DNA of 64,000 nucleotides from Thermoplasmata archaeon. Its GTDB lineage: Archaea; Thermoplasmatota; Thermoplasmata; Lutacidiplasmatales; UBA184. The stretch is from the NCBI GenBank assembly GCA_021790425.1, contig JAJYEA010000001.1, positions 67,015-131,014 of the forward strand, written 5' to 3'. This document shows, piece by piece, positions 1 through 54,700 of the stretch. Positions within the stretch are counted from its first letter, which is position 1. Every line of letters starts with the position of its first letter. A program made the position numbers and the translations under genes. A model generated the notes under the pieces. It saw only the letters and a list, made by a program, of their open reading frames with translations, was not told the DNA's origin and made no database searches.

Positions 1-2985
1 CCGATCGTGAACTCGCTCGCCTCCACTACCAGCATCGACGTGACCGCCAGCGGATACCTGAACGCCAGCTACACGACCGCCCTGGCCTCCTTCACGCTGA
101 CGAACGTCCCCCACGGGACCTGGACCCTCTACACCTACGGTTACTCGAACGGTTCGACTACGTACGACCGGTACAGCTACATCTCGACCAGCCTCACCCC
201 GGACACCAAGTCGGTCTTCTACCAGAACGTGACCCTCTCGGACAACTTCGTCTCGGGCCACTACCTCCCGAACACCCTGACGTTCAACGCCCCGTCCAAC
301 ATCACGATCTGGGACAGCAACACCTCTCAGGCGTACACCACCTACCAACCGGCCTCCGGTTCCACGTTCTTCCAGACCGGGGTCTACCCGGGCCTGTCGA
401 CCCCGACCAACACCACGTTCCTCGTCTTCCTCGCCCCCCAGGGCTACAACAGCACCTGGCACGAGTTCAAGGTGAGCGATGGTTCCGGCAAGTTCGGATC
501 GGTGAACTACCCCAACTTCATGCCGCCCATCCACCAGGAGAACTCGACGTACACCAACACGTCGATCACCCTGGGCCTGACCAACTCCTCCTGGCGCTAC
601 GCGTTCTCCGCCAACGTCTCGAGCCAGGCCTCGTGGACCAATGACGGCACGTTCGCCCAGCTCCCGAACGCGAGCGTAGGGAACCTCTGGGCCCAGTTGG
701 GATTCGACTTCAACGCGGGCCGCCCCAGCGTGAACAGCGCCGCCTTCACGAAGTTCACGCAGTGGCTCTCCGCCACGGGACCCATCTACCCCGTCCAGGC
801 GATGGGCCTCGGGATGAACGGCACCGTCTTCCAGACGGGCACGAACGTCACCCTCGCCCCGGCCTTCCCGGGGATCGAGAACTACTCGAGCGCCCTCGGA
901 CTCCACTACAACAGCTGGAGCAACTACTCGCTGGGCAAGACCCTGCCCGCCAACTCGAGCTCCTACCATCTCTCGGTCGGGTTCAACTACCCGAGCGTTG
1001 GGGAGTACGCGAACTACACCGTCCACCTGCCCACCGGGTTCGTCCTCAAGAACGGGACCGCCGCCCCGGCCGGGACCAGCATCGTGCCTTCCGGACCGGT
1101 CGGGCCCGGCGGACACCTCTGGACCAGCTTCACGATCCTGCCCAGCCCCTATTCCCGGACCAGCGGAGTGGCGAACTTCACCATCTACAAGGTCGGGAAC
1201 GTGTCCGCGATCGTGAACGTGACCTCCAGCAACTTCGCGTTCTCGTCGAAGAACATACTGAACAGCACCCTGGACAACTACACGGTCGAGGTCGGTTCCA
1301 ACACGAACGACAGCTACACTGCCACCCACTCGCTGGTGCCGGCGACGATGAACGTCACGAGCTTTGTCTGGAACTTCACCTCCAGCCCTTCGGCCTCGTG
1401 CGTGAACTCGAATGGGTTCACCAACCTGACGGCGCAGTGCGTCTACTCGAACGTCTCGACGGTGCACCACATCTTCTCCACGGGAGGGGTCTACCACGGA
1501 ACGCTCACGCTCCGCACGAGCGGCGGTGTCTCGAACACCACCCGGTTCACGACCTACGTGGACAACTCCCCGCCCAGCGCCCACATCAGCGTGAACAACA
1601 CCCACGTGACGGCGCTGAACGCGACCCTCGGTTACCTCTACGTCAACTGGAGCACCCTCCTGCACTTCAACGCCACCGGAAGCGTGGATGAGATCGTGGC
1701 AGGCGGAGGCAACGGGACCTCGAACCTCGGCAACATCTCGGTCGCCAACTGGACGATCCAGGCCGGCTCGACCCACCACTGGGTGAACTACACGGTCGGC
1801 GGCGGTGCGAAGGTCTTCAACAACGTCTCCTACCAGTTCCTCGGCGCGGGCACTTACGTGAAGCACAACCTGACGGTGGATGGGACCCAGCTCTCTCTCA
1901 CCGGATGGGAATACTCGGTGACCCTGACGCTGTGGGACGCGGGCGGCAAGCGCGCCAACGCCACGCTCTACCTCTTGGTGAACGACACCGAGAAGCCGGT
2001 CGCGGTGGCCACGGTCCAGAACGCCCAGGGGAAGAACATCACCGGCGGGCTGGTCGAGCAGCAGAACCACACGGCCGAGGTCCAGCTCCTGGACAACTAC
2101 TCCTACGACCCCCACAACGGGAGCCTGGCCCAGTACTCCTGGTCCGTGCAGAACAGCAAGGGGGAGCACATCTCCGCCTGCAACGTGAACAAGACCGGAC
2201 GGTGCTACTGGAACTCCACCTCGAACGGCAAGTGGTTCCTCTGGCTCGCCCCCTCCACGGGCGCGTACAACTTCACGTTGAACGTGACGGATCTCGCCGG
2301 GAACAAGGCGAACACCACCTACCCGGTGACGGTGGCGCAGAACCTCACCTTCCGCCCGATCATCACGGTCTCGAACCTGACCGCGTCCTCGACGACCATG
2401 ACGGACGGCTCGAGCTACACGATCTCCGTGACCGTGAACAACACCGCCTTCGCGAAGGCCACGGCGTACAACGTCACGGCCAACTTCTACGTGTCCGGAG
2501 CGAACGGCAACGGCAACCAGTCGATCGGAAGCTCTCCGGGCCAGGTCAAGTGGTTCGGCTACGTGGGCTCGGTGGTCAACTCCTCGTCCTCGTACACGGG
2601 GATACTCCCCGCGGAGAAGGCCAACCAGACCTGGAAGGCACAGATCACCTACACCCCGCCCAGCGGCTTCACGGGCACGAAGGAGATCTGGGTCAACGTG
2701 ACGGCGTCGAACGAGTTTTCCGGTGAGTACTCGAGCCACGCGAACATCGCCTCGATCTCGGTGACCATCAACCCCAACCCGCTGACGCAGGACCTCGAAT
2801 ACGTCGCGATCGCGGTGGCGGCCGTGGTGATCATCGTCGTGGCCGTGCTCTTCTACCGCCGGCGCATCGCCGGCCCCTCCTCGGGATCCGGCAAGAAGGA
2901 CAAGAAGTCGGAGAAGGGCTCCAAGGACGACAAGTCCAAGGAGAAGGAAGAGAAGCCCGAGGACGACGAGAAGGAAGAGGACTAG
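1..2985 (+). CDS. cell-surface (S-layer-like) glycoprotein, 5'-partial; C-terminal TM anchor plus Lys/Glu-rich tail
   Basis: Reading frame is open to the window edge. ~990 aa, Asn/Ser/Thr-rich, with dozens of N-x-S/T sequons. C-terminal hydrophobic helix YVAIAVAAVVIIVVAVLFY is followed by RRR and a KKDKKSEKGSKDDKSKEKEEKPEDDEKEED tail. Strong GC3 bias. Confidence 0.65.
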   Translation, partial: PIVNSLASTTSIDVTASGYLNASYTTALASFTLTNVPHGTWTLYTYGYSNGSTTYDRYSYISTSLTPDTKSVFYQNVTLSDNFVSGHYLPNTLTFNAPSNITIWDSNTSQAYTTYQPASGSTFFQTGVYPGLSTPTNTTFLVFLAPQGYNSTWHEFKVSDGSGKFGSVNYPNFMPPIHQENSTYTNTSITLGLTNSSWRYAFSANVSSQASWTNDGTFAQLPNASVGNLWAQLGFDFNAGRPSVNSAAFTKFTQWLSATGPIYPVQAMGLGMNGTVFQTGTNVTLAPAFPGIENYSSALGLHYNSWSNYSLGKTLPANSSSYHLSVGFNYPSVGEYANYTVHLPTGFVLKNGTAAPAGTSIVPSGPVGPGGHLWTSFTILPSPYSRTSGVANFTIYKVGNVSAIVNVTSSNFAFSSKNILNSTLDNYTVEVGSNTNDSYTATHSLVPATMNVTSFVWNFTSSPSASCVNSNGFTNLTAQCVYSNVSTVHHIFSTGGVYHGTLTLRTSGGVSNTTRFTTYVDNSPPSAHISVNNTHVTALNATLGYLYVNWSTLLHFNATGSVDEIVAGGGNGTSNLGNISVANWTIQAGSTHHWVNYTVGGGAKVFNNVSYQFLGAGTYVKHNLTVDGTQLSLTGWEYSVTLTLWDAGGKRANATLYLLVNDTEKPVAVATVQNAQGKNITGGLVEQQNHTAEVQLLDNYSYDPHNGSLAQYSWSVQNSKGEHISACNVNKTGRCYWNSTSNGKWFLWLAPSTGAYNFTLNVTDLAGNKANTTYPVTVAQNLTFRPIITVSNLTASSTTMTDGSSYTISVTVNNTAFAKATAYNVTANFYVSGANGNGNQSIGSSPGQVKWFGYVGSVVNSSSSYTGILPAEKANQTWKAQITYTPPSGFTGTKEIWVNVTASNEFSGEYSSHANIASISVTINPNPLTQDLEYVAIAVAAVVIIVVAVLFYRRRIAGPSSGSGKKDKKSEKGSKDDKSKEKEEKPEDDEKEED

Positions 2986-2997
2986 ACCGAACCCTTT

Positions 2998-3015
2998 CCC
3001 CCCCTTCGGGGGGGG
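2998..3015. terminator. C7-TTC-G8 hairpin between convergent stop codons (2985 and 3031)
   Basis: ccccccc ttc gggggggg read directly at 2998-3015, forming a perfect 7-bp GC stem in a 45-bp convergent intergenic gap. Confidence 0.3.
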
Positions 3016-3030
3016 ACGATCCCCAGCCGC

Positions 3031-4080
3031 CTAACGGTGGCTGGTGATCTTCTGCGCGAACTTCTTGTAGATTTCGGAGGCCCGCATCACAGCCTCGATC
3101 TTCACGTACTCGTTGGTCTGGTGGGCGAGCTCCTCGGAGCCGGCCCCCAGGATCACCACGCGGGGATTGACGGGCAGGTAGTGCACGGCCTCGGAGGCAT
3201 GCGCGAGCACGACCTTGGGGCCCGCGGCGACCTCCTCCATGATCCGGACATGCTCGGCGTTGGGGTCCACATGGATCGAGGGCATGCTCAGGATCCTCCG
3301 GATGGAGAACTGCGTCTTGATCCGGCGCAGGTGCTCCTCGATCTCCCGCTGGAGCTCCTCGGGTGTGTACGGCGGTGGGAAACGGACGTCGATGTCGCAG
3401 ACGCACCGGGCCGGGACCACGTTGATCCGGGTCCCCCCATTGACCATCCCGATGTTCATGGTCACCTTGCCCATCTCCGAGTGCTCGATACGCCCCTTGA
3501 ACCCCTCGAGGGCCTTCAGGAGCCGCATCATCTTGACGATCGCGTTCTCGCCGAGCTGGGGCATGGCCCCGTGCGCCGCCTTCCCGCGCGCCTCAAGAGC
3601 AAAATCGAGGACCCCCTTCTCCGCGTAACCGACCCGGAGCGCCGTGGGCTCGCCGACCACGATCGCGCGGGCGCGCCGGATGGCCAGGGTCTTGGCCAGA
3701 CTGGCCGCCCCCTCCATCGTGGTCTCCTCATCGGTCGTGAACGCCAGGGTCACCGGCACCTTCCGTGTCACGAGGTCCTGGGCCGACTGGAGCATGGCCA
3801 CGATGCTGCCCTTCATGTCCGAGGCGCCCCGGCCGTACATGCGGCCCGAGGAGATCTGGCTCTGAGAGAAGTTCCACGAATCCCCGATCGGAGGCGTGTC
3901 CAGATGGCCCGAGAAGACCACCCCCCGCTCTCCGTACTCCGCAAGTACCGCCGGGGCGGAGGCGTTGCCGTGCACCGACACGCGCATCTTCAACTGTTCC
4001 GCGAACGACTGGACGTAGTCTAGGATCTCGCGCTTGTTGGAGGAGACGTCGGAAGGGATCGTGATAAGGTCCGACAGCAT
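3031..4080 (-). CDS. M20-family metallopeptidase/deacylase (ArgE/DapE/LysK-like)
   Basis: C-terminal 349 aa of the 717-aa minus ORF has M20 motifs (HLDTPP, GRGASDMKG, TTDEETT). ATG at 4080 (MLSDLITIPS). An AT-rich box (aactatc) lies ~28 nt upstream. The rest of the long ORF is antisense to the IS. Confidence 0.8.
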   Translation of the reverse strand: MLSDLITIPSDVSSNKREILDYVQSFAEQLKMRVSVHGNASAPAVLAEYGERGVVFSGHLDTPPIGDSWNFSQSQISSGRMYGRGASDMKGSIVAMLQSAQDLVTRKVPVTLAFTTDEETTMEGAASLAKTLAIRRARAIVVGEPTALRVGYAEKGVLDFALEARGKAAHGAMPQLGENAIVKMMRLLKALEGFKGRIEHSEMGKVTMNIGMVNGGTRINVVPARCVCDIDVRFPPPYTPEELQREIEEHLRRIKTQFSIRRILSMPSIHVDPNAEHVRIMEEVAAGPKVVLAHASEAVHYLPVNPRVVILGAGSEELAHQTNEYVKIEAVMRASEIYKKFAQKITSHR

Positions 4081-4243
4081 GTCAACCGTCTGCCGCTTCA
4101 CCGAACTATCGCCCTCCCGGCATGCGTAATGTAACCCGGCTATTATACTCTTCGACAAAAGGTTCCTCATGCCCGAGGGGCTCAGGGGGGCGCGCCGGTT
4201 CACCTGCGGCCCTGCACCCGGTGCGCATCGGCATCCCAGGGGG

Positions 4244-4252
4244 CTCAGGGAA
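4244..4252. repeat. 9-bp target-site duplication CTCAGGGAA (left copy)
   Basis: Identical 9-mer at 5586-5594 immediately outside the inverted-repeat termini. Confidence 0.6.
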
Positions 4253-4253
4253 A

Positions 4254-5585
4254 GTGGTGTGCGAAGAATGGTTGATGGCGAGGGTAACCTCTCCCCTGGT
4301 GGGAACCGGAAAGAACCCAACAGGAGGAGAGGCGAATGGAAGGAGACACACACCCGCATATCGATTTTGGAGGACTGCTGTCGAGCGCCGAACACTGGGG
4401 AATACGGGCGTTGGAGCGCCTCCTGGAGGACACCGAGGAGGTCCTCCTGGGGGAGCTCCACCGGGAGAAGACGGAGTGCGGAAGGCAACGCTACGTTCGT
4501 CATGGACGCCGGCCCCGGAACCTCGTCACCAAGATGGGGAAGGTCACGCCCTGGGTGACCCGAGTCCGTGATCGCCTGACCGGGCGGGTCTTCTCCCCCC
4601 TGGTGGAGGCGTTGGGGCTGGGACGGAAGCGCTACACTCCCGAGCTCCGTCTGGCGGCGGCGGAGCTCGCCACCCGCACCTCCTATGAGGAGGCGTCCCA
4701 AGCCCTCGAACGGACCCTGGGCTTCCGCATCCCCCGCCGCACCATCTGGGACTTCCTCCAGGAGTTGGCGGACACCCTGGAGATCACCCTGAAGGAGACC
4801 GCGCCACCCCCTTCGGAGGTGACCCTGAGGCTCAGCCACTCCGTGGACTCCACCTTCGTGCGAGGGAAACGCGCGCGAGAGCAGCACGAGGTGGAGGTAG
4901 CGATCACGCAAGGACAGGACCACCGGGTGAAGCTGGTCGGGGTCGCCATCGACCGGCGCCCCGGTGTGGCCCTTGGGGATACGGAGGTGCACCACCTCAC
5001 CACGGATGACGCGCCGGGGCTGAGGGCCCTGGACGCGGAGCACCGTCAGCTCTGTCACGTGCACTTCGTGCGGCACCTGGCGGGCCTCTTGGGGGAGGAG
5101 GGGGTGAGCCTTAGGGAGCGGGAAGAGATCCTGAGCCCTCTCCGGGGTCTCCTGGCGCACCTGCGGAACTCCGTGGAAGCGCACCGGTATGACGGGAGCG
5201 TGGGAACGGTGACCGAGCGAGTGCGCGTGACGCTGAGGGAACTAGGGGTCGTGGGACTGCGCCTGGAACGAGCCGGGTGCCCCCAGTCGGCCCGCTTCGT
5301 GCTGAGGGAGATGCGATCCTTGGTGGTGTTCGCGGAGGTGGGGAGGGAGCTGTGGATGCCCGCGACCTCCAATGGAGTGGAGCGCGTGATGGGGATGATC
5401 GCGGACCGGTGCAAGCGGAAGTGGGCGCATTGGAACCGAGGGCTTCACAACATGGTGCTGGCGCTCCTTGCCCGCAAGATCCGCCCTGTGGTCTATGGAG
5501 TGGCGACCCGCAAGTATCTAAAGGCGCGAGGCTATGGGTGAGTGGCTTCCGTTAGGGGCGTCGTCTACCATTATCCACACACCAC
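4254..5585 (+). mobile_element. IS256-family insertion sequence (~1.33 kb), complete
   Basis: Terminal inverted repeats GTGGTGTGCGAAGAATGGTTGA (4254-4275) and its counterpart ending ...CACACACCAC (5564-5585) match 18/22 (20/27). They are flanked by the 9-bp direct repeat CTCAGGGAA. A single transposase ORF fills the element. Confidence 0.7.
4336..5541 (+). CDS. IS256-family (Mutator-like) transposase
   Basis: 401 aa. N-terminal region RYVRHGRRPRNLVTKMGKVTPWVTRVRDRLTGRVFSPLVE...SYEEASQALERTLGFRIPRRTIWDF fits the IS256 transposase consensus (R-Y-RNG-R-R-L-T-G-V-VPR-RD-G-F-P-L ... S-V-LE-L-G-S). The C-terminal motif TSNGVERVMGMIADRCKRK also fits. A GGAGGAGAGG Shine-Dalgarno site lies upstream of the ATG. 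Confidence 0.75.
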   Translation: MEGDTHPHIDFGGLLSSAEHWGIRALERLLEDTEEVLLGELHREKTECGRQRYVRHGRRPRNLVTKMGKVTPWVTRVRDRLTGRVFSPLVEALGLGRKRYTPELRLAAAELATRTSYEEASQALERTLGFRIPRRTIWDFLQELADTLEITLKETAPPPSEVTLRLSHSVDSTFVRGKRAREQHEVEVAITQGQDHRVKLVGVAIDRRPGVALGDTEVHHLTTDDAPGLRALDAEHRQLCHVHFVRHLAGLLGEEGVSLREREEILSPLRGLLAHLRNSVEAHRYDGSVGTVTERVRVTLRELGVVGLRLERAGCPQSARFVLREMRSLVVFAEVGRELWMPATSNGVERVMGMIADRCKRKWAHWNRGLHNMVLALLARKIRPVVYGVATRKYLKARGYG

Positions 5586-5594
5586 CTCAGGGAA
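5586..5594. repeat. 9-bp target-site duplication CTCAGGGAA (right copy)
   Basis: See left copy. Confidence 0.6.
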
Positions 5595-5649
5595 GCCGTC
5601 CGACGGGGAGCGGGGAAAGGTTAATTCGCCGGCACGCTTACGAACGGTG

Positions 5650-6090
5650 ATGGGAGGCTACGCTACGTCGAACACCGTCCGTCGGGCATCGACCTACTCC
5701 TCGGACGACGAACTCCCGGTCGGGGTCGGCATCCTTGCGATCATCATGGGGGTACTGGGATTTCTCGCGATGCTGGCGGGCATCCTGCTCGTGGCGGAGG
5801 CGACGGGCCTCTCCATCGGGGCATTGGGCGCGATCGTCGGGGTCATCAACCAGTATGTGATCACGGTGGGCCAGTTCGGAGGGGTCCTCCTCGTGCTCGG
5901 CGGAGTGGTCACCCTCGCCATCGCGGCGGGTCTCTGGCACCAGGAGAGCTGGGCGCTCTGGACCTGCATCGTCGGGGTCGCCATCGTGGAGGCGATCCTC
6001 TTCTTCCTCCTAGTACCGTTCAGCTACCTCTTCATCGGGTTCTTGGTCCTGTACGTCTACCTGTTGGCCGTCCGGCACCACTTCCGCTGA
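5650..6090 (+). CDS. small integral membrane protein (4 predicted TM helices)
   Basis: ATG at 5650 (MGGYATSN). Hydrophobic helices, high GC3. Stop overlaps the next start (TGATG at 6088-6092). The track's 5' extension to 5542 lies inside the IS. Confidence 0.55.
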   Translation: MGGYATSNTVRRASTYSSDDELPVGVGILAIIMGVLGFLAMLAGILLVAEATGLSIGALGAIVGVINQYVITVGQFGGVLLVLGGVVTLAIAAGLWHQESWALWTCIVGVAIVEAILFFLLVPFSYLFIGFLVLYVYLLAVRHHFR

Positions 6091-6881
6091 TGCGGCTCAC
6101 GCTCGCCGAGGTGCGCCCGCACCGAGGCCGTCGGCCGGAGAATCTCGCGCTGGCCCGCGCGTGTGTCGAGCGGGCCGAAGGTGCGGACCTCGTGGCCTTT
6201 CCGGAGCTCTTCCTCAGCGGATACTCGGTCGGGGACCGCCTGCACCGCCTCGCGATCTCCCTGGAGGACCCGATGGTCCGTGCGCTACAGGAGCTGGCGC
6301 ACGACCGCAAGACGTGGCTCCTGCTGGGGACCCCGTTCACGGACCCCTCGCATGCGGGAGAGGTCCAGAACGTCGCGCTCCTGGTAGGGCCCGAGGGGAG
6401 CACCCATGTGCAGGGGAAGCGCTACCTTCCGACCTTCGGCCCCTTCGAGGAGGGCCGGATCTTCACCCCCGCACCGGACCGTAAGGTCGCCGACACGCCG
6501 CTCGGGAAGATCGGGCTCGAGATCTGCTACGAGGTCTTCTTTCCCGAGGTCTCGCGCGCGCTGGCCCTGGGAGGGGCCGATCTCCTGCTGGCCATCTCGG
6601 CCTCTCCGATCACGTCCCGGAGCCTCTTCGAGAAGCTCCTCCCGGCCCGAGCAATCGAGAACGCGGCCCCGGTCGCGTATGTGAACCGGGTGGGCGTGGA
6701 GGACGCGCTGGTCTTCGGCGGAGGCTCGGGGGCCTGGGACCCCCGCGGCGATCCGCTCGTGCCGCGGGTGACGGACCTCGGCCCCGACGGCCGTCTCCTC
6801 GAGTTCGAGCTTCCCCTGTCGGAGTACCGGCACTATCGGCCGATGCGGCCGGTGCTCCGCGACATCACCGCCCTACCGTGA
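6090..6881 (+). CDS. carbon-nitrogen hydrolase family protein (nitrilase/amidase superfamily)
   Basis: E-K-C triad contexts FPELFLSGY, KRYLP, GLEICYE. 263 aa. Confidence 0.8.
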   Translation: MRLTLAEVRPHRGRRPENLALARACVERAEGADLVAFPELFLSGYSVGDRLHRLAISLEDPMVRALQELAHDRKTWLLLGTPFTDPSHAGEVQNVALLVGPEGSTHVQGKRYLPTFGPFEEGRIFTPAPDRKVADTPLGKIGLEICYEVFFPEVSRALALGGADLLLAISASPITSRSLFEKLLPARAIENAAPVAYVNRVGVEDALVFGGGSGAWDPRGDPLVPRVTDLGPDGRLLEFELPLSEYRHYRPMRPVLRDITALP

Positions 6882-9560
6882 GAAGAGCTTCCCCATCGCG
6901 TAGGGGAGGAGACCGCCGGTCCGATAGTAGTCGACCTCCACCTCCGAGTCGAGGCGCAGGAGGGCTTCGAACGTCACCTCGTGAGGGGTGCCATCGGCCC
7001 CCGGGCCCGAGGCGTGGACGGTGACCTTGGTGTGGGGGGCCATCGGGCCGTTGGCGAGCGAGAGCGAGTAGGTCTCCTTCCCGGTAAGCCCGAGGGACTT
7101 CCAGCTCTCTCCCTTCCGGAACTCCAGCGGGAGGACGCCCATCCCCGCCAGGTTGCTCCGGTGGATCCGCTCGTAGCTCTGGGCGATCACCGCCCGGACC
7201 CCGAGGAGGAGGGGGCCCTTGGCGGCCCAATCCCGGGAGCTCCCCTGGCCGTAGCGCTGCCCGGCGAGGACGATGAGGGGACGGCCCTCCTTCCGATAGA
7301 GCTCGGAGGCGTCGAAGATCGCCATCTCCTGGCCCTCCGGCATCTTCGTGGTGCGGCCACCGCCGCCCTGGGGGGCGAGATAGTTCTTGAGCCGTGTGTT
7401 GGCGAACGTCCCCCGCGCCATCACCTCGTGATTCCCGCGCCGGCTCCCGTAGGTGTTGAAATCCGCCTCCGAGACGCCGTGGGCGATCAGGTACTTCCCC
7501 GCCGGGGTCGTCGGGGGGATCTCGCCCGCGGGGGAGATATGGTCCGTCGAGACGTTGTCGCCCAGCAGGGCCAGCACGCGGGCGTCCTGCAGGAGGGTTC
7601 CTCCCGGTGGGCGCACCGCCCGGTTCTCGAAGTACGGGGCCTCCCGGAGATAGGTCGAGGTGGGCTCCCAGTCGTAGAGCAGGCCCTTGCCGACCCGCAG
7701 GGCGTCCCAGTGGGATCCCCCGTCGAGGATCTTCGAGTAGCTCTGTCGGAAGCCCGCGACGTCCAGGGAGTGTTCCATCGCCGCCCGCACCTCGTCCGAG
7801 GTGGGCCAGATGTCCTTCAGCATCACGGGATGCCCCGAAGGGGTCTTGCCGAGCGGTTCCGTCGCGAGGTCGATGTCGATCCTTCCTGCGAGGGCGCTGG
7901 CCACCACGAGCAGGGGCGAGGCAAGGTAGTTCGCACGCACCTGGTTGTGCACCCGGGCCTCGAAGTTGCGATTCCCGCTGAGCACCGCGACCAGGAAGGT
8001 GTCCGAATCTGCCACGGCCTTCTCGCAGATCGGGTTCAGCGGCCCGCTGTTCCCGATGCAGGTAGTGCACCCGTAGCCCACGATCGCGAACCCGAGCTGC
8101 TCGAGGGGCTTCACGAGCCCGCTCCGCTCGAGGTACGACGCGACCACGCGCGAGCCGGGTGCCAGGGACGTCTTCACGTGGGAAGGGACCCGGAGCCCCT
8201 TCTCTACCGCGTGCTTCGCCAGGAGGCCCGCCCCGATCATCACGGCGGGGTTGGAGGTGTTCGTGCAACTGGTGATCGCGGCGATCGCGATCGACCCATC
8301 CGGCAGAGACGCGGTGCCCGCAGGGGCCGGATGCTCCTTCCGGTACCCGGCCAGCGCCTCCCGGAAGGAGGCCGGGACCTCGGAGAGCGTCCGCGCTTCG
8401 TCGGGGTTCTTGGGTCCGGCCATCGTGGGTACGACGCTCCCGATATCGAACACGAGCTCCAGGGCGACCTCGGGGGAGGGGGACCGCTCGTCCTGCCAGA
8501 GGCCCAGGGCATGGGCGTAGGCCTCGACGAGCTTCACCGTCTCCTCGGGGCGGCCGGAGGCCCGCAGGTAGGACAGGGTCGCGGCGTCGATGGGGAAGAG
8601 GGCGGCCGTCGCCCCGTACTCGGGACACATGTTCGAAAGGGTGGCGCGTTCCTGCACGGACAGGGCCCGAACCCCCGGGCCGTAGAACTCGACGAACTTG
8701 CCGACGACCCCCGTCTTCCGCAGGAGCTGCGTGATCCGGAGCACGACGTCCGTCGCGGTGACGCCCTCGTGAAGCACCCCGTCGAGCCGCACGCCGACCA
8801 CTTCCGGGTAGGGGAGCACGTAGGGCTCTCCGAGCATCACCGCCTCGGCTTCGATCCCGCCGACACCCCAGCCGAGGACCCCGAGACCGTTAATCATCGT
8901 GGTGTGCGAATCCGTCCCGAGGACGGTGTCCGGGAAGGCCTCGTGCGGGACGCTGGTCCCTCCACCCGCGGCCTCCCGGGTCGCCACCACGGAGGCGAGG
9001 TATTCCATGTTCACCTGGTGGCAGATACCGTTCCCCGGCGGCACCACCCGCAACCGGGGGAAGGCGCCCTGAGCCCAGCGGAGGAACGCGTAGCGCTCCC
9101 CGTTCCGCTCGTACTCCTTCTGCAGGTTCGATGCGAGGGACTGGGGGGAACCGTAGCTGTCGACCTGGATCGAATGGTCGATGACCAGGTCGATCGGGAT
9201 CCAGGAATCCACCTTGGTGGGGTCGTTCCCGTCCTTCTTCGCGGCGGCGCGCATGGAGGCCAGGTCCACCACGACGGGGACGCCGGTGAAGTCCTGCAGC
9301 AGGATCCGGGCCGGGTAGAAGGGAAGGTCCGCCCCCTCCTTTCGCGGCTTGCCATTCGCAAGGTCCTGCACGAGGGAGAGGTCGACGTGGCTCCGCGCCG
9401 CGTTCCGGACAAGGTTCTCGAGGAGGATCCGCTCCACCTTCGGACGACGGGACAGCCGGGCAGGGTCCACTCCCTCGATCTTGGAGGGGTTGTGGACGAT
9501 GTACGTGCGGTCCCCGACCGTAAGCGACTCCCTCGATGACGACAACCCGGACGCCTTCAT
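6873..9560 (-). CDS. acnA: aconitate hydratase (aconitase A)
   Basis: 895 aa with full-length aconitase motifs (cluster-ligand Cys contexts CTNTSN, SCTN..., GYGCTTCIGNSG; swivel domain SRRGNHEVMARGTFAN). Confidence 0.9.
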   Translation of the reverse strand: MKASGLSSSRESLTVGDRTYIVHNPSKIEGVDPARLSRRPKVERILLENLVRNAARSHVDLSLVQDLANGKPRKEGADLPFYPARILLQDFTGVPVVVDLASMRAAAKKDGNDPTKVDSWIPIDLVIDHSIQVDSYGSPQSLASNLQKEYERNGERYAFLRWAQGAFPRLRVVPPGNGICHQVNMEYLASVVATREAAGGGTSVPHEAFPDTVLGTDSHTTMINGLGVLGWGVGGIEAEAVMLGEPYVLPYPEVVGVRLDGVLHEGVTATDVVLRITQLLRKTGVVGKFVEFYGPGVRALSVQERATLSNMCPEYGATAALFPIDAATLSYLRASGRPEETVKLVEAYAHALGLWQDERSPSPEVALELVFDIGSVVPTMAGPKNPDEARTLSEVPASFREALAGYRKEHPAPAGTASLPDGSIAIAAITSCTNTSNPAVMIGAGLLAKHAVEKGLRVPSHVKTSLAPGSRVVASYLERSGLVKPLEQLGFAIVGYGCTTCIGNSGPLNPICEKAVADSDTFLVAVLSGNRNFEARVHNQVRANYLASPLLVVASALAGRIDIDLATEPLGKTPSGHPVMLKDIWPTSDEVRAAMEHSLDVAGFRQSYSKILDGGSHWDALRVGKGLLYDWEPTSTYLREAPYFENRAVRPPGGTLLQDARVLALLGDNVSTDHISPAGEIPPTTPAGKYLIAHGVSEADFNTYGSRRGNHEVMARGTFANTRLKNYLAPQGGGGRTTKMPEGQEMAIFDASELYRKEGRPLIVLAGQRYGQGSSRDWAAKGPLLLGVRAVIAQSYERIHRSNLAGMGVLPLEFRKGESWKSLGLTGKETYSLSLANGPMAPHTKVTVHASGPGADGTPHEVTFEALLRLDSEVEVDYYRTGGLLPYAMGKLFSR

Positions 9561-9659
9561 GGGGCGGCCGAGAAGGGAAGAGAATTTAGTGCTGCCGCTC
9601 CGTCCGCCGGCTCGGCCGCGGCGGCCGCTCCCCCCTTCCGGGCGGGTGATCGCGCGAGG

Positions 9660-12600
9660 TTACTGGGTACGTGCTCCGGTCGGCGGGGAGGATGGGGCGT
9701 TGCCCGGGGGGGCCTGCTCGGGTCGCTTCGGCTTCCGCGTGAGGACCACTACCGCCACCACGGTGCCCACGATCACGGCCCCGATCAGCGCCCACCAGAC
9801 CCAGTCCGGCGTTCCGCTCCCGCTCGTCGCACTCCCGCTGGCGGCGACCACCGTCACCACCGTCGTCGTGCTCGCCGAGTGCGAGGCCGTGTCCGTCACC
9901 GTCACCGTTACCGTGTAGTTCCCCGTCTGCGTCGGCGTGCACGTCAGCGCGTCCGTGTCCTGGCTCGCGCATCCCGTCGGGAGCCCCGTGTAGGCATACG
10001 TCAGCGCCCCCGACCCGCCCGACGCCGTCACGTAGAGCGTCGTCTGCGCGTTCACCGTCACCGGGCTCGGGGAGGCGTAGAAGCTCTGGATCGTCGGGCT
10101 CCCGGGCGCCGCCAGGACCGTCAGGATCGCCTGGCCCTGTCCGGAGTACCCGTTCGCGTCCGTCACCGTCACGGTCACCGTGAAGGCGCCCGTCACCGTG
10201 CTCACGCACTTGAGCGAGGCCACGTTCGCCGAGAGGCACCCGCTCGGGAGCTGCGCGTAGGCATACATGTAGGGGGACGTCCCGCTCGAGACCGTCACGT
10301 TGAGGTAGCTCGTCCCTCCCAGCGAGACCGTCGCGGGAGAGGCCGTGAACGAGCTCACCACCGGCACCGTGTAGACCGTGAAGGTGGTCTGCGCCGTGGT
10401 CGAGCGCGGCGTGCTCGCCGAGTCGTGCACCGTCACCGTCACGGAGTAGGTCGTGGTGGTGGTGACCGTGGTGGAGCAGACCAGCTGGGTCGCGTTCACG
10501 CTCGGGCAGGTTCCCGGCTGACCGGTGTAGGCGTAGGTCAGCGGCCCCGCTCCGCCCGACGTTCCCACCGACAGGGTGGTGGTGCCCCCCGAGACGAGCG
10601 TGGCCGGGCTCGCCTGGAAGGAGGTGATGGCGGGGGCCGGCGGCAACCCCGCGACGCTCACCGTGAAGGCGGCCGTCTGGGTGACCGAGTGGGGGGTGGA
10701 GGCGGAGTCCGAGACCGTCACGGTCACGGAGTAGGTCGTGGTGGTGGTGACCGTGGTGGAGCAGACCAGCTGGGTCGCGTTCACGCTCGGGCAGGTTCCC
10801 GGCTGACCGGTGTAGGCGTAGGTCAGAGGTCCGACCCCTCCCGAGGCGGAGACGTTGAGGAAGGTGGTGCCGCCCGAGGGGATGGTGGCCGGCGAGGCCG
10901 TGAAGGCGCTGATCGTCGGTCCCGTTCCCACCGGGGCGTTCACTGTGAAGGTGGTCGTCTTCGTCGCCGTGTGGGGAGTGGACGCGGAGTCCGAGACCGT
11001 CACGGTCACCGTGTAGGTCGTGGTGGAGGTGACCGTGGTGGAGCAGACGAGCTGGGTCGCGTTCACGCTCGGGCAGGTTCCCGGCTGACCGGTGTAGGCG
11101 TAGGTCAGAGGTCCGACCCCTCCCGTGGCGGAGACGTTGAGGTAGGTGGTGCCGCCCGAGGGGATGGTGCCGGGCGAGGCGGTGAACGTCGAGATGACCG
11201 GCCCCGTGCCCGGGACGTTCACGGTGAAGGAGGCCGTCTTCGTGGCCGTGTGGGGCGTGGAGGCCGAGTCCGAGACCGTCACCGTCACGGTGTAGGCCGT
11301 GGTGGCCGTGGCCGTGGTGGAACAGACCAGCTGGGTCGCGTTAGCGCTCGGGCAGGATGCCGGCTGACCGGTGTAGGCGTAGGACAGGGGTCCGACCCCT
11401 CCGGTGGCCGTGACGTTGAGGTAGGTGGTGCCGCCCGAGGGGATGATGACCGGCGAGGCCGTGAAGGCGCTGATCGTCGGTCCCGTTCCCACCGGGGCGT
11501 TCACCGTGAAGGTGGCCGTCTTCGTCGCCGTGTGGGGAGTAGACGCGGAGTCGGAGACCGTCACGGTCACGGTGTAGGTCGTGGTGGAGGTGACCGTGGT
11601 GGAACAGACCAGCTGAGTGGCGTTCACGCTCGGGCAGGTTCCCGGCTGACCGGTGTAGGCGTAGGTCAGAGGTCCGACCCCTCCGGTGGCCGTGACGTTG
11701 AGGTAGGTGGTGCCGCCCGAGGGGATGGTGGCCGGCGAGGCGGTAAAGGCGCTGATCGTCGGGCCGCTCACCGCCGTGCCGGTCACGTGGACGGTCACCG
11801 AGTTGGAGGTGGCGGTTGAGCTGCCTCCGGTGACGGTGACGGTGGCCTGGTAGATGCCCGGCGTGGTGTAGGCGTGGGTGGTGTAGTAGGTGGAGGTGGT
11901 GGCGGTCCCTCCGTCTCCGAAGGTCCACGCGTAGGAATAGCCGGTCAGGGAGGCGGGTCCTCCCGCCACGTCAGCGCTGAAGCCCACTCCGAGGGAGGCG
12001 GGGCCGAAGGTCACGTTCGCGCTGAGGATCGCGGTGAGCGTGGCGGTCGGGCTGGGATTGGCGTTCTGTGCCGCCACGAGCTGGGCAAGCTGAGAGACGT
12101 TGAAGCTCCCCAGTCCCGTGACCGCGTCCCACCCGGGGGTGGTGGTGTAGCCGGAACCCGAGACCTTGTTGTTGCCCACGACGATGTCGTGGAACCCGAT
12201 GTGGTAGTTGGAGGTCTTGGCGATCGCGTAGAGGTCGTAGTCCGCCATCCCGTTGGCCTTGGTCGCGGTGCCGTTGTACTGGTACATGATGTCCAGCATG
12301 GCGGCGGAGGCGGGAGTTGCCAGGGACGTGCCCGCGCTCAGGGAGAACTTCGTGCTGAAGCTGCTGTCGTAGAGGACCACCCAGGTTCCGCCGATCGCGG
12401 CGATGTCGGGGATCCCCCGGTGCGTGTTGCTGAATCCGGTCATCCCGGTCTGGTAGGCCGGCGCGGCGATCGTCTTCGAGTAGCCGCCCCCGGACCCCGC
12501 GTCGTTCGCCCCCGTCGACGTGCAGGTGGGGTCGTTCGTGCCGTTCCAGGCGAACTCCGCACGGAAGCCTCCGCTCGGCAGGGGGTAGACCTGGGTTCCG

Positions 12601-14114
12601 CCCACTCCGACGCCGTAGGGGCTGTCCGCCGGCGGGTCCGAGCCGGTGGAAAGGTCAAGGGAACCGCAGTCGCCGCTCGCCGAGAGGTAGCTCTGGCCCT
12701 GGGCGGCCGCCGTCGTCCAGTAGCTCGTCGTGTACGAGGCACCCCAGCTGTTGGAGGTGATGTACACGCCGTTCGAGAGGGTGTTCCAAGTCCCGTCTCC
12801 CTCGTCGATCGCGCTGTTCGACAGGTCGACCTCGAGGGTGGCGTTGGGAGCCATCGAATGGGCCCACTCGATGTCGAGCATCGTCTCGCCCGCCCATCCC
12901 GACGAGCCGGAAGTGCACTTCGCAGCCGTGTTCCCACTGCCGATCAGCTGGAGGGTGCTGGTAGTGAACTGCGGCAGTCCCATCCAGAGGGAGAAGCGGT
13001 TCGCGTCCGCAAGGTAGCTCGTGTAGCTCGGGTCGCACATCTCGTCGAGGCCGATCTTGGTCCCCGCGCCCGTGTGGCCCATGGCGTAGAGGGGAAGGAT
13101 GTCGTAGAAGGTCTGGAGCGTCCGAGGCGAGATCCCGGGGAAGACCCCGACCGTGTAGGTGACGGAGTTCCCGCCGGAGTCGTTCACGAAGACGGTGATG
13201 TTCCAGCAGGCGGCGCTGTTGCAGTAGTCTGCCTGGGCCGGGTTGTAGTACATGTGGAGGGCCTTCAACTGGGCGGCGCTGGTCGTGAAGTGGTTGATCG
13301 TTCCGTCACCCCAGTGCCAGCTGACGGAGTAGGGGGCGGTCCCGCCCGTGATGTTGAGCTGGTAGGAGCCGTTGTAGTTGGTGGGCGGGTTCACAAAGGT
13401 CCCGGTCCCGGCATAGATGAAGAACGGACCGTTCATGCTCATGTTGAGCGTGATCGTGGCCGCGGGGTTGGCCGCCACGGGGGACCCCGCCAGGGGGCTC
13501 CACTGCAGGAGGTTCTGAGGGACCGGGGGGTTCACGGTCTGGAACCCTCCGTCGATCTTGACGAGGGAGGCGAGCGAACTGGGAAGCTGGAGGGGGGTGG
13601 CGGGGTAGTACCCGACGTGACCCGGCGCGCGGGCGGTCACGTAGGTGGTGCCGAAGGCGGCGTCCATGGCGGACGCGGGCCCTTGCACGTTCCACATGAG
13701 CGGGCCGACCGGGCTGACCTGCACACCCTGGCTGGTCAGGTAGCTCTCTAGGGAGGCCTGGGCCTGGGGAGACGGGCCGAAGAGTTCGTTGAACTGGTTT
13801 CCGGTGAGGAACTGATGATACAGGGGGGAAGACGGATCGTACAGGTCCTGGATGAGTTGGGCTTGTCCCTGGGGGTCATGGGTCTGGAACGTCAGCGACC
13901 CCACGACCATGTGGTCCGGGGCGAGGGGCGATCCGAGTGCGAGGTCCGCCGGCCGCACCATGGGCCCTGCCAACGGGACCAGGCTTCCCACAGACGGCGC
14001 CGGTGCGGATGCGACGGTGGCCCCCGCGGCCACGGCCCCTGGAGAGAAGGCCATGAGCATCGCGATGCCGAAGATCAACACTAGGTTCCACTTCACCATG
14101 CCAGACGCCGACAT
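9660..14114 (-). CDS. membrane-anchored surface protease: signal peptide, pro-kumamolisin-like propeptide, sedolisin (S53) catalytic domain, PKD domain, 7 x ~94-aa two-Cys Ig-like repeats, C-terminal TM
   Basis: S53 motifs GWAGETMLDIEW (Glu/Asp) and SAGTSLATPASAAM (SGTS Ser). PKD signature YAWTFGDGGT...THAY. Repeats of the form GPTISAFTASP..GGTTYLNVTATGGVGPLTYAYTGQPGTCPS..LVCSTT..TVTVTVSDSAS. C-terminal helix LIGAVIVGTVVAVVVL plus RKPKR. ATG at 14114 (MSASGMVKWNLVLIFGIAMLMA signal peptide), with TATA-like ccttaaatcc ~30 nt upstream. The track's start at 14216 is a 5' extension. Confidence 0.8.
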   Translation of the reverse strand: MSASGMVKWNLVLIFGIAMLMAFSPGAVAAGATVASAPAPSVGSLVPLAGPMVRPADLALGSPLAPDHMVVGSLTFQTHDPQGQAQLIQDLYDPSSPLYHQFLTGNQFNELFGPSPQAQASLESYLTSQGVQVSPVGPLMWNVQGPASAMDAAFGTTYVTARAPGHVGYYPATPLQLPSSLASLVKIDGGFQTVNPPVPQNLLQWSPLAGSPVAANPAATITLNMSMNGPFFIYAGTGTFVNPPTNYNGSYQLNITGGTAPYSVSWHWGDGTINHFTTSAAQLKALHMYYNPAQADYCNSAACWNITVFVNDSGGNSVTYTVGVFPGISPRTLQTFYDILPLYAMGHTGAGTKIGLDEMCDPSYTSYLADANRFSLWMGLPQFTTSTLQLIGSGNTAAKCTSGSSGWAGETMLDIEWAHSMAPNATLEVDLSNSAIDEGDGTWNTLSNGVYITSNSWGASYTTSYWTTAAAQGQSYLSASGDCGSLDLSTGSDPPADSPYGVGVGGTQVYPLPSGGFRAEFAWNGTNDPTCTSTGANDAGSGGGYSKTIAAPAYQTGMTGFSNTHRGIPDIAAIGGTWVVLYDSSFSTKFSLSAGTSLATPASAAMLDIMYQYNGTATKANGMADYDLYAIAKTSNYHIGFHDIVVGNNKVSGSGYTTTPGWDAVTGLGSFNVSQLAQLVAAQNANPSPTATLTAILSANVTFGPASLGVGFSADVAGGPASLTGYSYAWTFGDGGTATTSTYYTTHAYTTPGIYQATVTVTGGSSTATSNSVTVHVTGTAVSGPTISAFTASPATIPSGGTTYLNVTATGGVGPLTYAYTGQPGTCPSVNATQLVCSTTVTSTTTYTVTVTVSDSASTPHTATKTATFTVNAPVGTGPTISAFTASPVIIPSGGTTYLNVTATGGVGPLSYAYTGQPASCPSANATQLVCSTTATATTAYTVTVTVSDSASTPHTATKTASFTVNVPGTGPVISTFTASPGTIPSGGTTYLNVSATGGVGPLTYAYTGQPGTCPSVNATQLVCSTTVTSTTTYTVTVTVSDSASTPHTATKTTTFTVNAPVGTGPTISAFTASPATIPSGGTTFLNVSASGGVGPLTYAYTGQPGTCPSVNATQLVCSTTVTTTTTYSVTVTVSDSASTPHSVTQTAAFTVSVAGLPPAPAITSFQASPATLVSGGTTTLSVGTSGGAGPLTYAYTGQPGTCPSVNATQLVCSTTVTTTTTYSVTVTVHDSASTPRSTTAQTTFTVYTVPVVSSFTASPATVSLGGTSYLNVTVSSGTSPYMYAYAQLPSGCLSANVASLKCVSTVTGAFTVTVTVTDANGYSGQGQAILTVLAAPGSPTIQSFYASPSPVTVNAQTTLYVTASGGSGALTYAYTGLPTGCASQDTDALTCTPTQTGNYTVTVTVTDTASHSASTTTVVTVVAASGSATSGSGTPDWVWWALIGAVIVGTVVAVVVLTRKPKRPEQAPPGNAPSSPPTGARTQ
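10300..11800. repeat. tandem ~285-bp near-identical coding repeats (5 copies) inside the protease gene
   Basis: A >100-bp identical stretch (cggagtaggtcgtggtggtggtgaccgtggtggagcagaccagctgggtcgcgttcacgctcgggcaggttcccggctgaccggtgtaggcgtaggtcag) recurs at ~10442, ~10727, ~11010, ~11290 and ~11570. Confidence 0.8.
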
Positions 14115-14386
14115 GCGCTGGGCCAACCTCGCAATGTCCTTAAATCCTTGCATGCCCGGGGGAGCGCCCGGCTCGCCCAGGCGACCTCTGAGAATCGAAG
14201 GCCCCGCCGTGGCCACACGGGATCGGTCGGGGCAGCGTGCGGGAAGGCTCCCTCAAAGAAAGGGACCTTGCTGGAAAAGGAAAAGCGGACACTTGCCGAG
14301 GCCGGAGCCTACGGGTGCCTCTTTCCCGGAGCCTGGCTCCGGACCAAGCGGGCCATGACCTCTTCCCCCGCGCGGCCGGCCCGCAC

Positions 14387-23483: not shown

Positions 23484-23568
23484 GCTGGCGTAGCCAAGTC
23501 TGGTCAACGGCAACGGACTCAAGATCCGTTCTCGCAGGAGTTCCCAGGTTCAAATCCTGGCGCCAGCA
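23484..23568 (+). tRNA. tRNA-Leu (anticodon CAA), class II with long variable arm
   Basis: Hand-folded cloverleaf. Acceptor GCTGGCG/CGCCAGC, U8, A14, G18G19. Anticodon stem ACGGA/TCCGT with loop CTCAAGA (U33, G37). 14-nt variable arm. T arm CCAGG-TTCAAAT-CCTGG. Discriminator A. No encoded CCA. Confidence 0.8.
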
Positions 23569-44246: not shown

Positions 44247-44321
44247 GGGACTGTGGGGTAGCTTGGTCCATCCTATGGCGTTCGGGACGCTGTGACTCCG
44301 GTTCAAATCCGGACAGTCCCA
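44247..44321 (+). tRNA. tRNA-Pro (anticodon CGG)
   Basis: Hand-folded. Acceptor GGGACTG/CAGTCCC, U8, A14, G18G19, A21. Anticodon stem TGGCG/CGCTG (two G-U pairs) with loop TTCGGGA (U33, G37). T arm TCCGG-TTCAAAT-CCGGA. Discriminator A. Confidence 0.7.
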
Positions 44322-44343
44322 CTCCTCAGCCGCGATGGGTTCC

Positions 44344-51710: not shown

Positions 51711-54700
51711 GTGTCCGGCGGTGGTTGCCGAGGCATAGCACGGATATCTTCATTACCCCGACGGGCTCTTGCCTCGCTCGTGCGCTGGACCCGACCCACG
51801 CTGGCGTTGGTGCTCACGGCGATCTTGGTGGCAGGGTTCCTGGCCATCCCGGGAGCTCCCGGTGACATGGAGCACGGGGCGGCCCAGCTCTCGGCCGGGC
51901 TCCTTACGATGCTCCCAGCGTTCGAGTCCATCTACCCGGGCGCCCGAGACCTCGGAGCGGTTGCCCCGTCCACCCCGATGACGGTCGGCCTGGCCCTCTC
52001 TCCCAACGACCCCCGCGCGCTCGACGCGTACGTGTATGCCGAGTACACCCCCGGGTCCCCCGCCTACGGTCACGAGCTCAACCCGCAGAAGTTCCAGACG
52101 TACTTCTCCCCCTCCGCAGCGGACTACCGCGCGGTGCAGAGCTACTACGCGGCCTACGGGCTCTCGACGATCACGACCCCCGACCGGCTGATGATCGGCC
52201 TCACCGGGACGGCGGGTCACATTTCGAATGCCTTCCACACGAGCTTCCACCGCTTCCAGTTGACCGACGGGGCCGACGTCTACGGGGCCTCCCAATCGGT
52301 GGTGGTTCCGGCAGGGCTGTCGATCGACGGGGTCACCGGGATGACGAACGCCTGGGGTCCCCGACCGACCGATATCAACCCCGGGCAGGTCGAGGCCGCC
52401 GCGGCGGGCTGGGCCCACAGCGAGAAGACGGCCACGCCGGGAACATGGACATGCACCTCCGGCACGCAAGGGTGTGACGAGCCCGGCTACTACGGCGAGT
52501 ATCCCCTCTTCAACGCAGGGGATACCGGCCAGGGTGTCAACGTGGGGATCGTCGACGCCTACGACAGTGCCGAGACCCAGTCCCAGCTCCTGAGCTCCGA
52601 GCAGAGCTTCGCGAGCGGGGCAGGGCTGCCCGCGCCGCACGAGAACTTCTGGTACCCGATCCCGGGTGCGGGCAACCTGAACACCTCCGCGAGCAGCGGA
52701 TGGGCAGGGGAGACCGACCTCGACCAGCACATGGCCTTCATGGACGCTCCCGGGGCCAACATCGATGTCACGTTCGCTTCCGACAGCTCCTTCGCGGTCT
52801 ACGAGGCCGTGGACTTCCTGGTGGCCCACAACCTGACCCAGACCATCTCGATGTCGTGGGGCGAGTCCGATGTGGGGAACATGCAGGCGCCTCCCCAGGG
52901 TCCGTGCATGCCCTACTACAGCTGCAACGCGTCGTATGACGGCTCCTACGCCTTCCTTCACCCCGTGTTCGCGGAGGCCGTGGCCGAGGGGATCACCCCC
53001 TTCGCGGCCGCCGGGGACTGTGGCGCGGCGGACGGCACTTACACGGTCGCGACGGACTACCCTTCGAGCGACCCCTTCGTGGTGGGCGTGGGAGGCACCC
53101 AGCTGAACGGCAGCGGCTCCACCTATGCGGGGGAGACGGGATGGAGCGGCAACGGCACGGGATGCACCGCGAACACCGGGGGCGGGGGCGGAGGCTACGC
53201 GCCCTGGGCCCAGCCCTGGTGGCAGCACGGCCCGGGCCAGCTCACCCACCACCTCCGGGGAGTACCGGACGTCAGCGCGGACTCGGCGGACGGGACCAGC
53301 CAGGCGTCCCCGATGTGGGCCGGCTGGGTCGCCGTGGCCGACCAGATCCACGGAGGGGGGCTCGGGCTCATCGGCCCCTCGATGTACAACATCCTGAGCA
53401 ACGCCACGGAATACGCGGCCGACTTCCACGACATCAAGACCGGGAACAACGGGTACGCCGCGGGCACCGGTTGGGACCCCATCACGGGGATCGGGACCCC
53501 CGTCACTGGCGCGCTCTTGCCGGCGCTGGGCCGCTACCTGCCGCCCGTCCACGGGTCCTTGAACGTCTCCCTCGCGGCCACGCCGACCTCGGGCTCCGCG
53601 CCCCTGTCCGTCACGTTCACCGCCTCTGCGAGCGGAGGCACCCCTCCCTACTGGTACGACTTCGTGCCCGGGCTGTACCTGGGCCAAGTCTCGAACACCC
53701 CGTCCATCACCTACCCGTACGCCTCGGCCGGACCGTACTACGCGACGGTCGTCGCGTGGGATGCCGCGGGCAACTCCTCCATCTCCAACCCGGTCCTCGT
53801 CCACGTCGGCGACTCCGCGTTGACGGCGACGCTCGCGGCCTCCGCGACCCACGTTCTGGTCGGGCAGACCGTCACCTTCACGGGAGGGGCGAGCGGCGGG
53901 ACGGCACCGTACCAGTTCACGTACTTCTACGGGGACGGCACCTACGGATACAACCGGAGCACGAGCGCGACGCACGCCTACCTCTCTCCGGGCACCTACT
54001 GCGCCTACGCCTTCGTGACGGATGGGGCGGCCACGCAGAACGGCGGTGTCACGAACCCGGTCTGCGTCACGGCGAGCTATTCCTCAGGGTCGGGTCCCAC
54101 GATCTCCTCCTTCACGGCCTCCCCTTCCACCATCACCGTCGGCGGCACGACCTACCTCAACGTCTCCGCCTCCGGCGGGACGGGACCCCTCGCCTACGCC
54201 TACTCCGGCCTTCCCGCCCCCTGCGCGAGCTCCAACTCCAGCGCCATCACGTGCACCCCTTCCGCCGTGGGCGGTCCCTACTCCATCACGGTGACCGTCA
54301 GCGACAGTGCCTCTCCCCGTCACACCACCAGCGCCACGACCTCCTTCACGGTCACCTCGACCGGAGGCACGGGACCGACCATCTCCACCTTCACCGCGAG
54401 CCCCTCCTCCATCCCCGCGGGGGGCACGACCTACCTCAACGTCACCGCCTCGGGAGGCGTCGGCCCGCTGACCTACGCCTACTCCGGCCTTCCCACTCCC
54501 TGCGCGAGCTCCAACTCGAGCTCGATCACCTGCGCCCCCGCTTCCTCGGGAGGGCCGTACACCATCACCGCGACGGTCTCCGACTCGGCCCCGTCTCCCC
54601 ACTCCACCTCTGCCACCACCTCCTTCACCGTCACCCCGAGTGGAGGGACGGGACCGACCATCTCCTCCTTCACCGCGAGCCCGGCCTCTATCCCCGCGGG

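Follow-up and report, generated by a model that had tools for sequence, protein, structure and literature searches.

Insertion sequences (ISs) of the ISH6 family carry terminal inverted repeats of ~24 to 28 bp that start with GGT (ISfinder description). Descriptions of the family place it almost exclusively in halophilic archaea, and it was even proposed as a marker of high-salt habitats (PMC9208149). In the scheme of Guerillot et al. (2014), ISH6 (p-MULT 2) and IS256 (p-MULT 1) are distantly related groups of one Mutator-like superfamily, which shares a DDE triad, a C/D-x-x-H motif, and a long helical insert and for which circular intermediates were proposed as a general feature; ISH6 was reported to prefer the AT-rich target AANATNTT (PMC3942029). 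Terminal repeats of the IS256 family contain a conserved subterminal TGTAAA (PMC7780238, citing Dodd et al. 1994), and copy-out/paste-in transposition has been described for IS256 and ISCth4 (PMC7780238). Nothing relevant was found in the literature on ISH6 together with Thermoplasma. We analyzed a 64,000-nt stretch of the genome of a Thermoplasmata archaeon (assembly GCA_021790425.1, contig JAJYEA010000001.1, positions 67,015 to 131,014; the whole stretch is referred to here as the window and is numbered from its first letter). Positions 4253 to 5586 are, with high confidence, an intact autonomous archaeal IS of the ISH6 family, belonging to a divergent Thermoplasmata subgroup and inserted very recently, with an 8-bp stagger, between two divergent genes (Table 1). 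As a mobile element it is unremarkable, and its kinship with IS256 is remote.

A preliminary description of this stretch had proposed an intact IS with terminal inverted repeats, a target-site duplication, and a single 401-aa transposase, and this anatomy was recovered in full. A repeat search returned two inverted arms of 27 nt (4254 to 4280 and 5559 to 5585; 78% complementary) starting with GTGGTGTG. Over 28 positions, the terminal repeats are imperfect, with 21 identical bases in register (left tip, AGTGGTGTG; right tip, GGTGGTGTG). The ends are unique in the window: the terminal motif GTGGTGTGYGRAKAATGGT was present only at 4254 to 4272 (plus strand) and 5567 to 5585 (minus strand), compared with a chance expectation of ~0.06. 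The sole long open reading frame (ORF) between the arms, 4336 to 5541, is preceded by GGAGGAGAGG. The G+C content of the element (66.1%) was like that of the rest of the window (67.4%), and thus its composition gave no indication that it had come recently from another genome.

The search for further copies yielded five short contigs encoding exactly the same transposase protein (L001 to L005; four from metagenome samples and one from an NCBI genome assembly). In BLAST alignments, these contigs were 100% identical to the window over exactly 4253 to 5586 (1,334 bp) and unrelated to it outside these limits, adding three left and four right flank contexts to the window's own. They were used for boundaries and junction counts only. 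We assigned A4253 and C5586 to the element because both were kept in every other flank context; the terminal C was present at all five right junctions, i.e., that of the window and those of the four other contexts. An exact scan of JGI metagenome contigs with the right end (GTCTACCATTATCCACACACCACC) gave no match.

The site without the element was found in a related strain, in contig DAHWRD010000020.1 of assembly GCA_027340385.1 (L029), which was reached via the membrane protein encoded downstream (5650 to 6090). L029 matched the window at 308 to 4252 and at 5586 to 9854 with 100% identity (3,945 and 4,269 bp; no mismatch or gap) and lacked the element. The two alignments overlap by nine bases, CTCAGGGAA, which are present once in L029. 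Thus, L029 stands for an otherwise identical strain whose target site is still empty, indicating that the insertion is real and younger than any substitution in the 8.2 kb of flanking sequence. Both sequences are metagenome derived, and either allele could have come from a mixed population, which would allow the difference to be read as a precise excision, or as the collapse of a polymorphic site by the assembler, rather than as a new insertion in the window lineage. We regard this as very improbable, since one copy of the duplicated 8-mer between perfect flanks is the expected preinsertion state, DDE elements rarely excise precisely, and the insertion allele would still be the derived one under polymorphism in the population. 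The empty site in identical flanks and the identical copies elsewhere together point to a new insertion of a recently inserted and probably still mobile element, in agreement with what had been proposed.

Two of the other insertion sites showed features of their own. At the site represented in three contigs (L002, 730 to 773; L004, 100 to 141; L005, 12 to 54), a strong TATA-like box, TTTATATATCC, lies 33 to 43 bp outside the left end, and a promoter there could read into the transposase gene. In L001 (1 to 1254), a host ORF of 417 aa ends in a TAG composed of its own T and the AG of the element tip, which suggests that this copy truncates, or merely abuts, a coding region.

The 9-mer CTCAGGGAA occurred only twice in the window, at 4244 to 4252 and 5586 to 5594, both adjoining the element ends, and had been taken for a 9-bp target-site duplication. 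The perfect 9-bp repeat exists, but the duplicated target is most likely the 8-bp TCAGGGAA; the ninth base appears repeated because the element's own terminal C (C5586) happens to match base 4244. If the duplication were 9 bp, the element would measure 1,333 bp (4253 to 5585) and would prefer a C at the first duplicated position. This reading draws on the perfect repetition of a 9-mer both in the window and in one relative of the element (L008; CTTGTCATG, which is ambiguous between 8 and 9 bp in the same way) and on the duplication in another relative (L021), which is 9 bp even when 9-nt tips are defined; the empty site in L029, taken alone, fits either length equally. It is nevertheless quite improbable, given that C follows CACACCAC at each of the four right junctions that the identical element has elsewhere (a chance of ~1% for a target-derived base) and that the base nine positions outside the element is A, not C, at two of the three other left junctions. 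Moreover, the duplication is unambiguously 8 bp, with a different ninth base and with 9-nt tips in register, in four relatives (L010, L014, L017, and L022), and a Halococcus ISH6 element also has an 8-bp duplication (AACTGCTT). The flanks of the window copy show staggered integration over 8 bp. No duplication was found in the relatives L006, L013, and L018.

The duplicated targets in the relatives were TTGTCATG, TGGAAACT, TCGCCGAG, CCCTGCCG, and CAGCTTCC. The targets duplicated by L021 and L022, two distinct relatives residing in separate genomes, closely resemble each other (CAGCTTCTC and CAGCTTCC, respectively), which may point to a degree of target preference in this subgroup.

Regarding family assignment, the transposase matched the NCBIfam ISH6 model (NF041731) over nearly its full length (228.6 bits; E = 1.1e-67; residues 23 to 384 against model positions 31 to 406 of 414), and ISH6 was the best-scoring family for all 25 aligned homologues. 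The next-best NCBIfam models, ISKra4 (p-MULT 4; 58.8 bits; cut-off, 205; E = 5e-16) and ISLre2 (p-MULT 3; 45.3 bits; cut-off, 200; E = 7e-12), remained far under their cut-offs. Together with Pfam UPF0236 (28.8 bits; cut-off, 24.3; E = 7e-7), they have in common with the transposase an N-terminal DNA-binding region within residues 23 to 198, i.e., matches that cover only its N-terminal third to half. A tblastn search of 72,556 plasmids (E ≤ 1e-5) matched 28 records, all of them haloarchaeal. The 15 matches listed (27 to 29% identity over 88 to 96% of the transposase) were mostly annotated as ISH6 family, ISNph3, or ISHla10; three were called just "transposase" or "hypothetical protein" (one hypothetical), and no IS256-family annotation was found among them. 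Two haloarchaeal ISH6-family elements (L030 and L031) have GGTCG at both ends, one of them with an 8-bp duplication. The element shares with the ISH6 family (ISH6, ISNph3, and ISHla10) a single-ORF DDE transposase, imperfect terminal repeats with a G/A-GT tip (tips in the relatives, GGTAGTGTG and AGTGGTGTG), an 8-bp target duplication, an archaeal host, and an intergenic site.

The preliminary description had instead assigned the element to the IS256 family, on the strength of an N-terminal block matching the consensus. Weak similarity was indeed present, but it was subthreshold in both the NCBIfam IS256 model (NF033543; 23.2 bits; cut-off, 150; E = 3e-5) and Pfam Transposase_mut (PF00872; 15.8 bits; cut-off, 21; E = 0.007), and these matches were confined to the N-terminal 54 to 110 residues. 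True IS256 membership could also appeal to the best structural match, which is the transposase of an IS256-family element (see below), and to the duplication, since 8 to 9 bp is compatible with IS256; the size class (1.3 to 1.5 kb) and the single ORF are likewise shared. However, neither TGTAAA nor TTTACA was found in the first 60 bp of either element end, the ISH6 model scored ~200 bits higher than the IS256 model, the homologues and plasmid matches listed gave the results described above, and the two families are kept apart as p-MULT 2 and p-MULT 1 (PMC3942029). IS256 membership, which is extremely improbable, was rejected on the profile scores and the missing motif. Judged from its sequence, the element is ISH6-like, and its relationship to IS256 holds at the superfamily level.

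The superfamily features were sought in the transposase itself. The predicted DDE triad consists of D171, D224, and E349, with a C240-x-x-H243 motif; the triad and H243 were invariant in the alignment of 25 homologues, and C240 was conserved in at least 90% of them. An AlphaFold2 model (pLDDT, 76.9) showed a core of beta strands and, after it, four helices (residues ~241 to 331), and this predicted helical insertion domain sits between the strand at 236 to 239 and E349. The best fold match of the model in the PDB was the ISCth4 transposase (6xg8_A; E = 3.6e-9; TM score, 0.53; ~420 columns), with Hermes as the next match; the PDB entries for ISCth4 are 6XG8 and 6XGX. Identical positions made up ~15% of the structural alignment with the ISCth4 transposase, and when the 25-sequence alignment was used as a profile against the sequences in the PDB, no match was obtained at E ≤ 1; ISCth4 was reached through the fold comparison only. 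With its triad, C-x-x-H motif, helical insert, and fold match, the predicted protein is a Mutator-like (p-MULT) DDE enzyme with an intact catalytic signature.

The start of the transposase differs among relatives. An ATG in the left repeat (GATGGCG; window 4274 to 4335) is the start codon of 421-aa transposases in four distant relatives (P0007, P0013, P0017, and P0026). A 1-nt difference shifts this ATG out of frame in the window, where TGA and TAA occur in the transposase frame and translation would start at 4336 instead. These arrangements imply two start architectures in the transposase family.

On these grounds, the transposase would recognize the ~28-bp imperfect terminal inverted repeats, and the element would move, most likely and by analogy with the IS256 family (PMC7780238), by copy-out/paste-in through a double-stranded circular intermediate. 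A figure-eight would be followed by a double-stranded circle with abutted ends (…CACACCACC, a few bases, AGTGGTGTG…), and integration through an 8-bp staggered cut would give the flanking duplication. The copy entered the GC-rich spacer very recently, after the split from a strain with no differences in the 8.2-kb flanks, separating two putative core promoters and destroying neither.

Several observations weigh against this account or parts of it. The ISH6 score falls 5% short of an annotation threshold, the NCBIfam equivalog cut-off (240 bits), a narrow miss by which the clade is marked as a divergent ISH6 subgroup, and the named ISH6 transposases among the plasmid matches listed are only 27 to 29% identical. 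At 1,334 bp, the element is ~110 to 130 bp shorter than L030 and L031 (1,442 and 1,463 bp, counted with the GG tip). One of its two tips deviates at the first base (left tip AGT instead of GGT), and its repeats read RGTGGTGTG compared with GGTCGYGTCG in haloarchaeal ISH6. The hosts are nonhalophile Thermoplasmata, and the targets are GC rich; the duplicated target in the window is unlike the AT-rich preference reported for ISH6 (PMC3942029). Such a target preference is not what defines the family. The stretch from the left end to the transposase start codon contained no AT-rich promoter-like box; that the promoter forms at the circle junction is speculation. The five identical copies show no matching 8-bp duplication, neither within nor between contigs. 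These contigs are probably chimeric across the repeat; alternatively, several copies may have recombined. Finally, copy-out/paste-in rests on homology, with no intermediate or activity observed for the element or for ISH6.

Among 5.8 billion proteins, 85 homologues of the transposase were found, few of them named ("hypothetical protein," "UPF0236 family transposase-like protein," or "transposase (ISH6)"). The relatives were deposited as hypothetical or UPF0236 transposase-like because their scores fall just below the ISH6 cut-off. Of 19 related genome loci, 18 are labelled Thermoplasmata archaeon (49 to 72% identity, best segment); the closest locus (L010; 68% identity) is labelled only "bacterium." We put at about even the case for an uncatalogued, currently active, Thermoplasmata-specific ISH6 subgroup with shorter elements, different repeats, and GC-rich rather than AT-rich targets. 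An ISH6-like label for this clade extends a small archaeal family beyond halophiles to Thermoplasmata and shows that the reported preference of ISH6 for AT-rich targets is not shared by the whole family. The value of these findings lies mainly in annotation and bookkeeping, and they will not surprise specialists in transposable elements. The most useful by-product is the pair of filled and empty sites in identical flanks: in strains identical over 8.2 kb, it provides clean evidence of activity in a natural population, and it offers a ready comparison for the expression effect of an archaeal insertion beside a leaderless promoter.

Table 1. Features of the insertion locus (window coordinates)
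Feature	Positions	Strand	Details
M20-family ArgE/DapE-type deacylase gene	3031..4080	-	Peptidase_M20, M20_dimer; start ATG 4080 or GTG 4101
AT-rich boxes	4126..4164	-	GTTACATTAC, GAGTATAATAG, AACCTTTT (minus strand); at least 88 bp outside element
Target-site duplication, left copy	4245..4252		TCAGGGAA, 8 bp; C4244 extends visible repeat to 9 bp
Complete insertion sequence	4253..5586	+	1,334 bp; bounded by five identical copies; missing from L029
Left terminal inverted repeat	4253..4280	+	AGTGGTGTGCGAAGAATGGTTGATGGCG; tip kept in relatives
Transposase gene, 401 aa	4336..5541	+	ORF; ISH6 model; predicted DDE residues; fold match of model to ISCth4 transposase
Right terminal inverted repeat	5559..5586	-	Reads GGTGGTGTGTGGATAATGGTAGACGACG inward
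Target-site duplication, right copy	5587..5594		TCAGGGAA, 8 bp
AT-rich box	5616..5628	+	AAAGGTTAATTCG; centre ~27 bp before ATG 5650; 29 bp outside element
Membrane-protein gene (146 aa, 5650-6090) and overlapping CN-hydrolase gene (6090-6881)	5650..6881	+	Codirectional with transposase gene

The placement of the element between the divergent M20 gene and the membrane-protein/CN-hydrolase genes, with its right end close to an AT-rich box, was as first described. The M20 gene most likely starts at ATG 4080, or else at GTG 4101. The 379-aa version of the gene caller (start, 4170) was rejected, as the family models begin only at its residues 22 to 31. Since the host is archaeal, promoters were surveyed by listing AT-rich boxes in place of a bacterial promoter/terminator scan. 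In the DNA from 4082 up to the element, AT-rich 8-mers were confined to 4126 to 4164, which is likely the TATA/BRE (B recognition element) region of the M20 gene. The only other intergenic AT-rich box, 5616 to 5628, is likely the TATA box of a leaderless membrane-protein/CN-hydrolase transcript. The element lies between these two sets of boxes, in a GC-rich spacer, so that the putative core promoters are uninterrupted and now stand 1.3 kb further apart.

The insertion might alter expression of the membrane-protein/CN-hydrolase genes, through read-through or an outward start from TACCATTATCCA (5566 to 5577, the AT-rich part of the right repeat), or might affect shared regulation by separating the promoters. 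The transposase gene points at these genes, and no run of at least four T residues was found between its stop codon and ATG 5650, which makes read-through conceivable. In addition, the right end and the putative TATA box are 29 bp apart, outward-directed promoter components are frequent in elements of the copy-out/paste-in type (PMC7780238), and a strong TATA box precedes another copy by ~35 bp. We nonetheless consider such an effect rather unlikely: both putative core promoters are intact and outside the element, elements with 80% identity do not keep the AT-rich stretch of the right repeat, and the presence of the insertion varies between strains that are almost identical, consistent with a recent neutral event.

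In the interval 5542 to 6090, a frame opened by a GTG that immediately follows the transposase stop codon (TGA, 5539 to 5541) continues through the right repeat and the duplication and joins the membrane-protein gene (ATG 5650) in frame. On read-through transcripts, 36 residues could thereby be added to the N terminus of the membrane protein. At a genomic G+C content of 67%, such an open frame is probably due to chance.

Other features of the window were noted. A protein of >992 aa is encoded at 7 to 2985 (1,255 aa in L029), with many N-x-S/T sequons and, at its C terminus, a hydrophobic segment and a tail of Lys, Glu, and Asp; no Pfam match was found for it, and it resembles a surface glycoprotein of archaea (S-layer type). 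A tRNA-Pro (cgg) at 44247 to 44322 was called by ARAGORN and not reported by the Rfam tRNA model at the gathering score; tRNA-Leu, at 23484 to 23568, was the only tRNA found by both. Two tandem repeats, of 282 bp (10429 to 11762; 4.7 copies; 86% matches) and 279 bp (54086 to 55196; 4.0 copies; 84% matches), lie inside the very long ORFs 9660 to 14216 (minus strand) and 51711 to 55958 (plus strand), respectively, and presumably represent repeated ~93-aa domains of large surface proteins.

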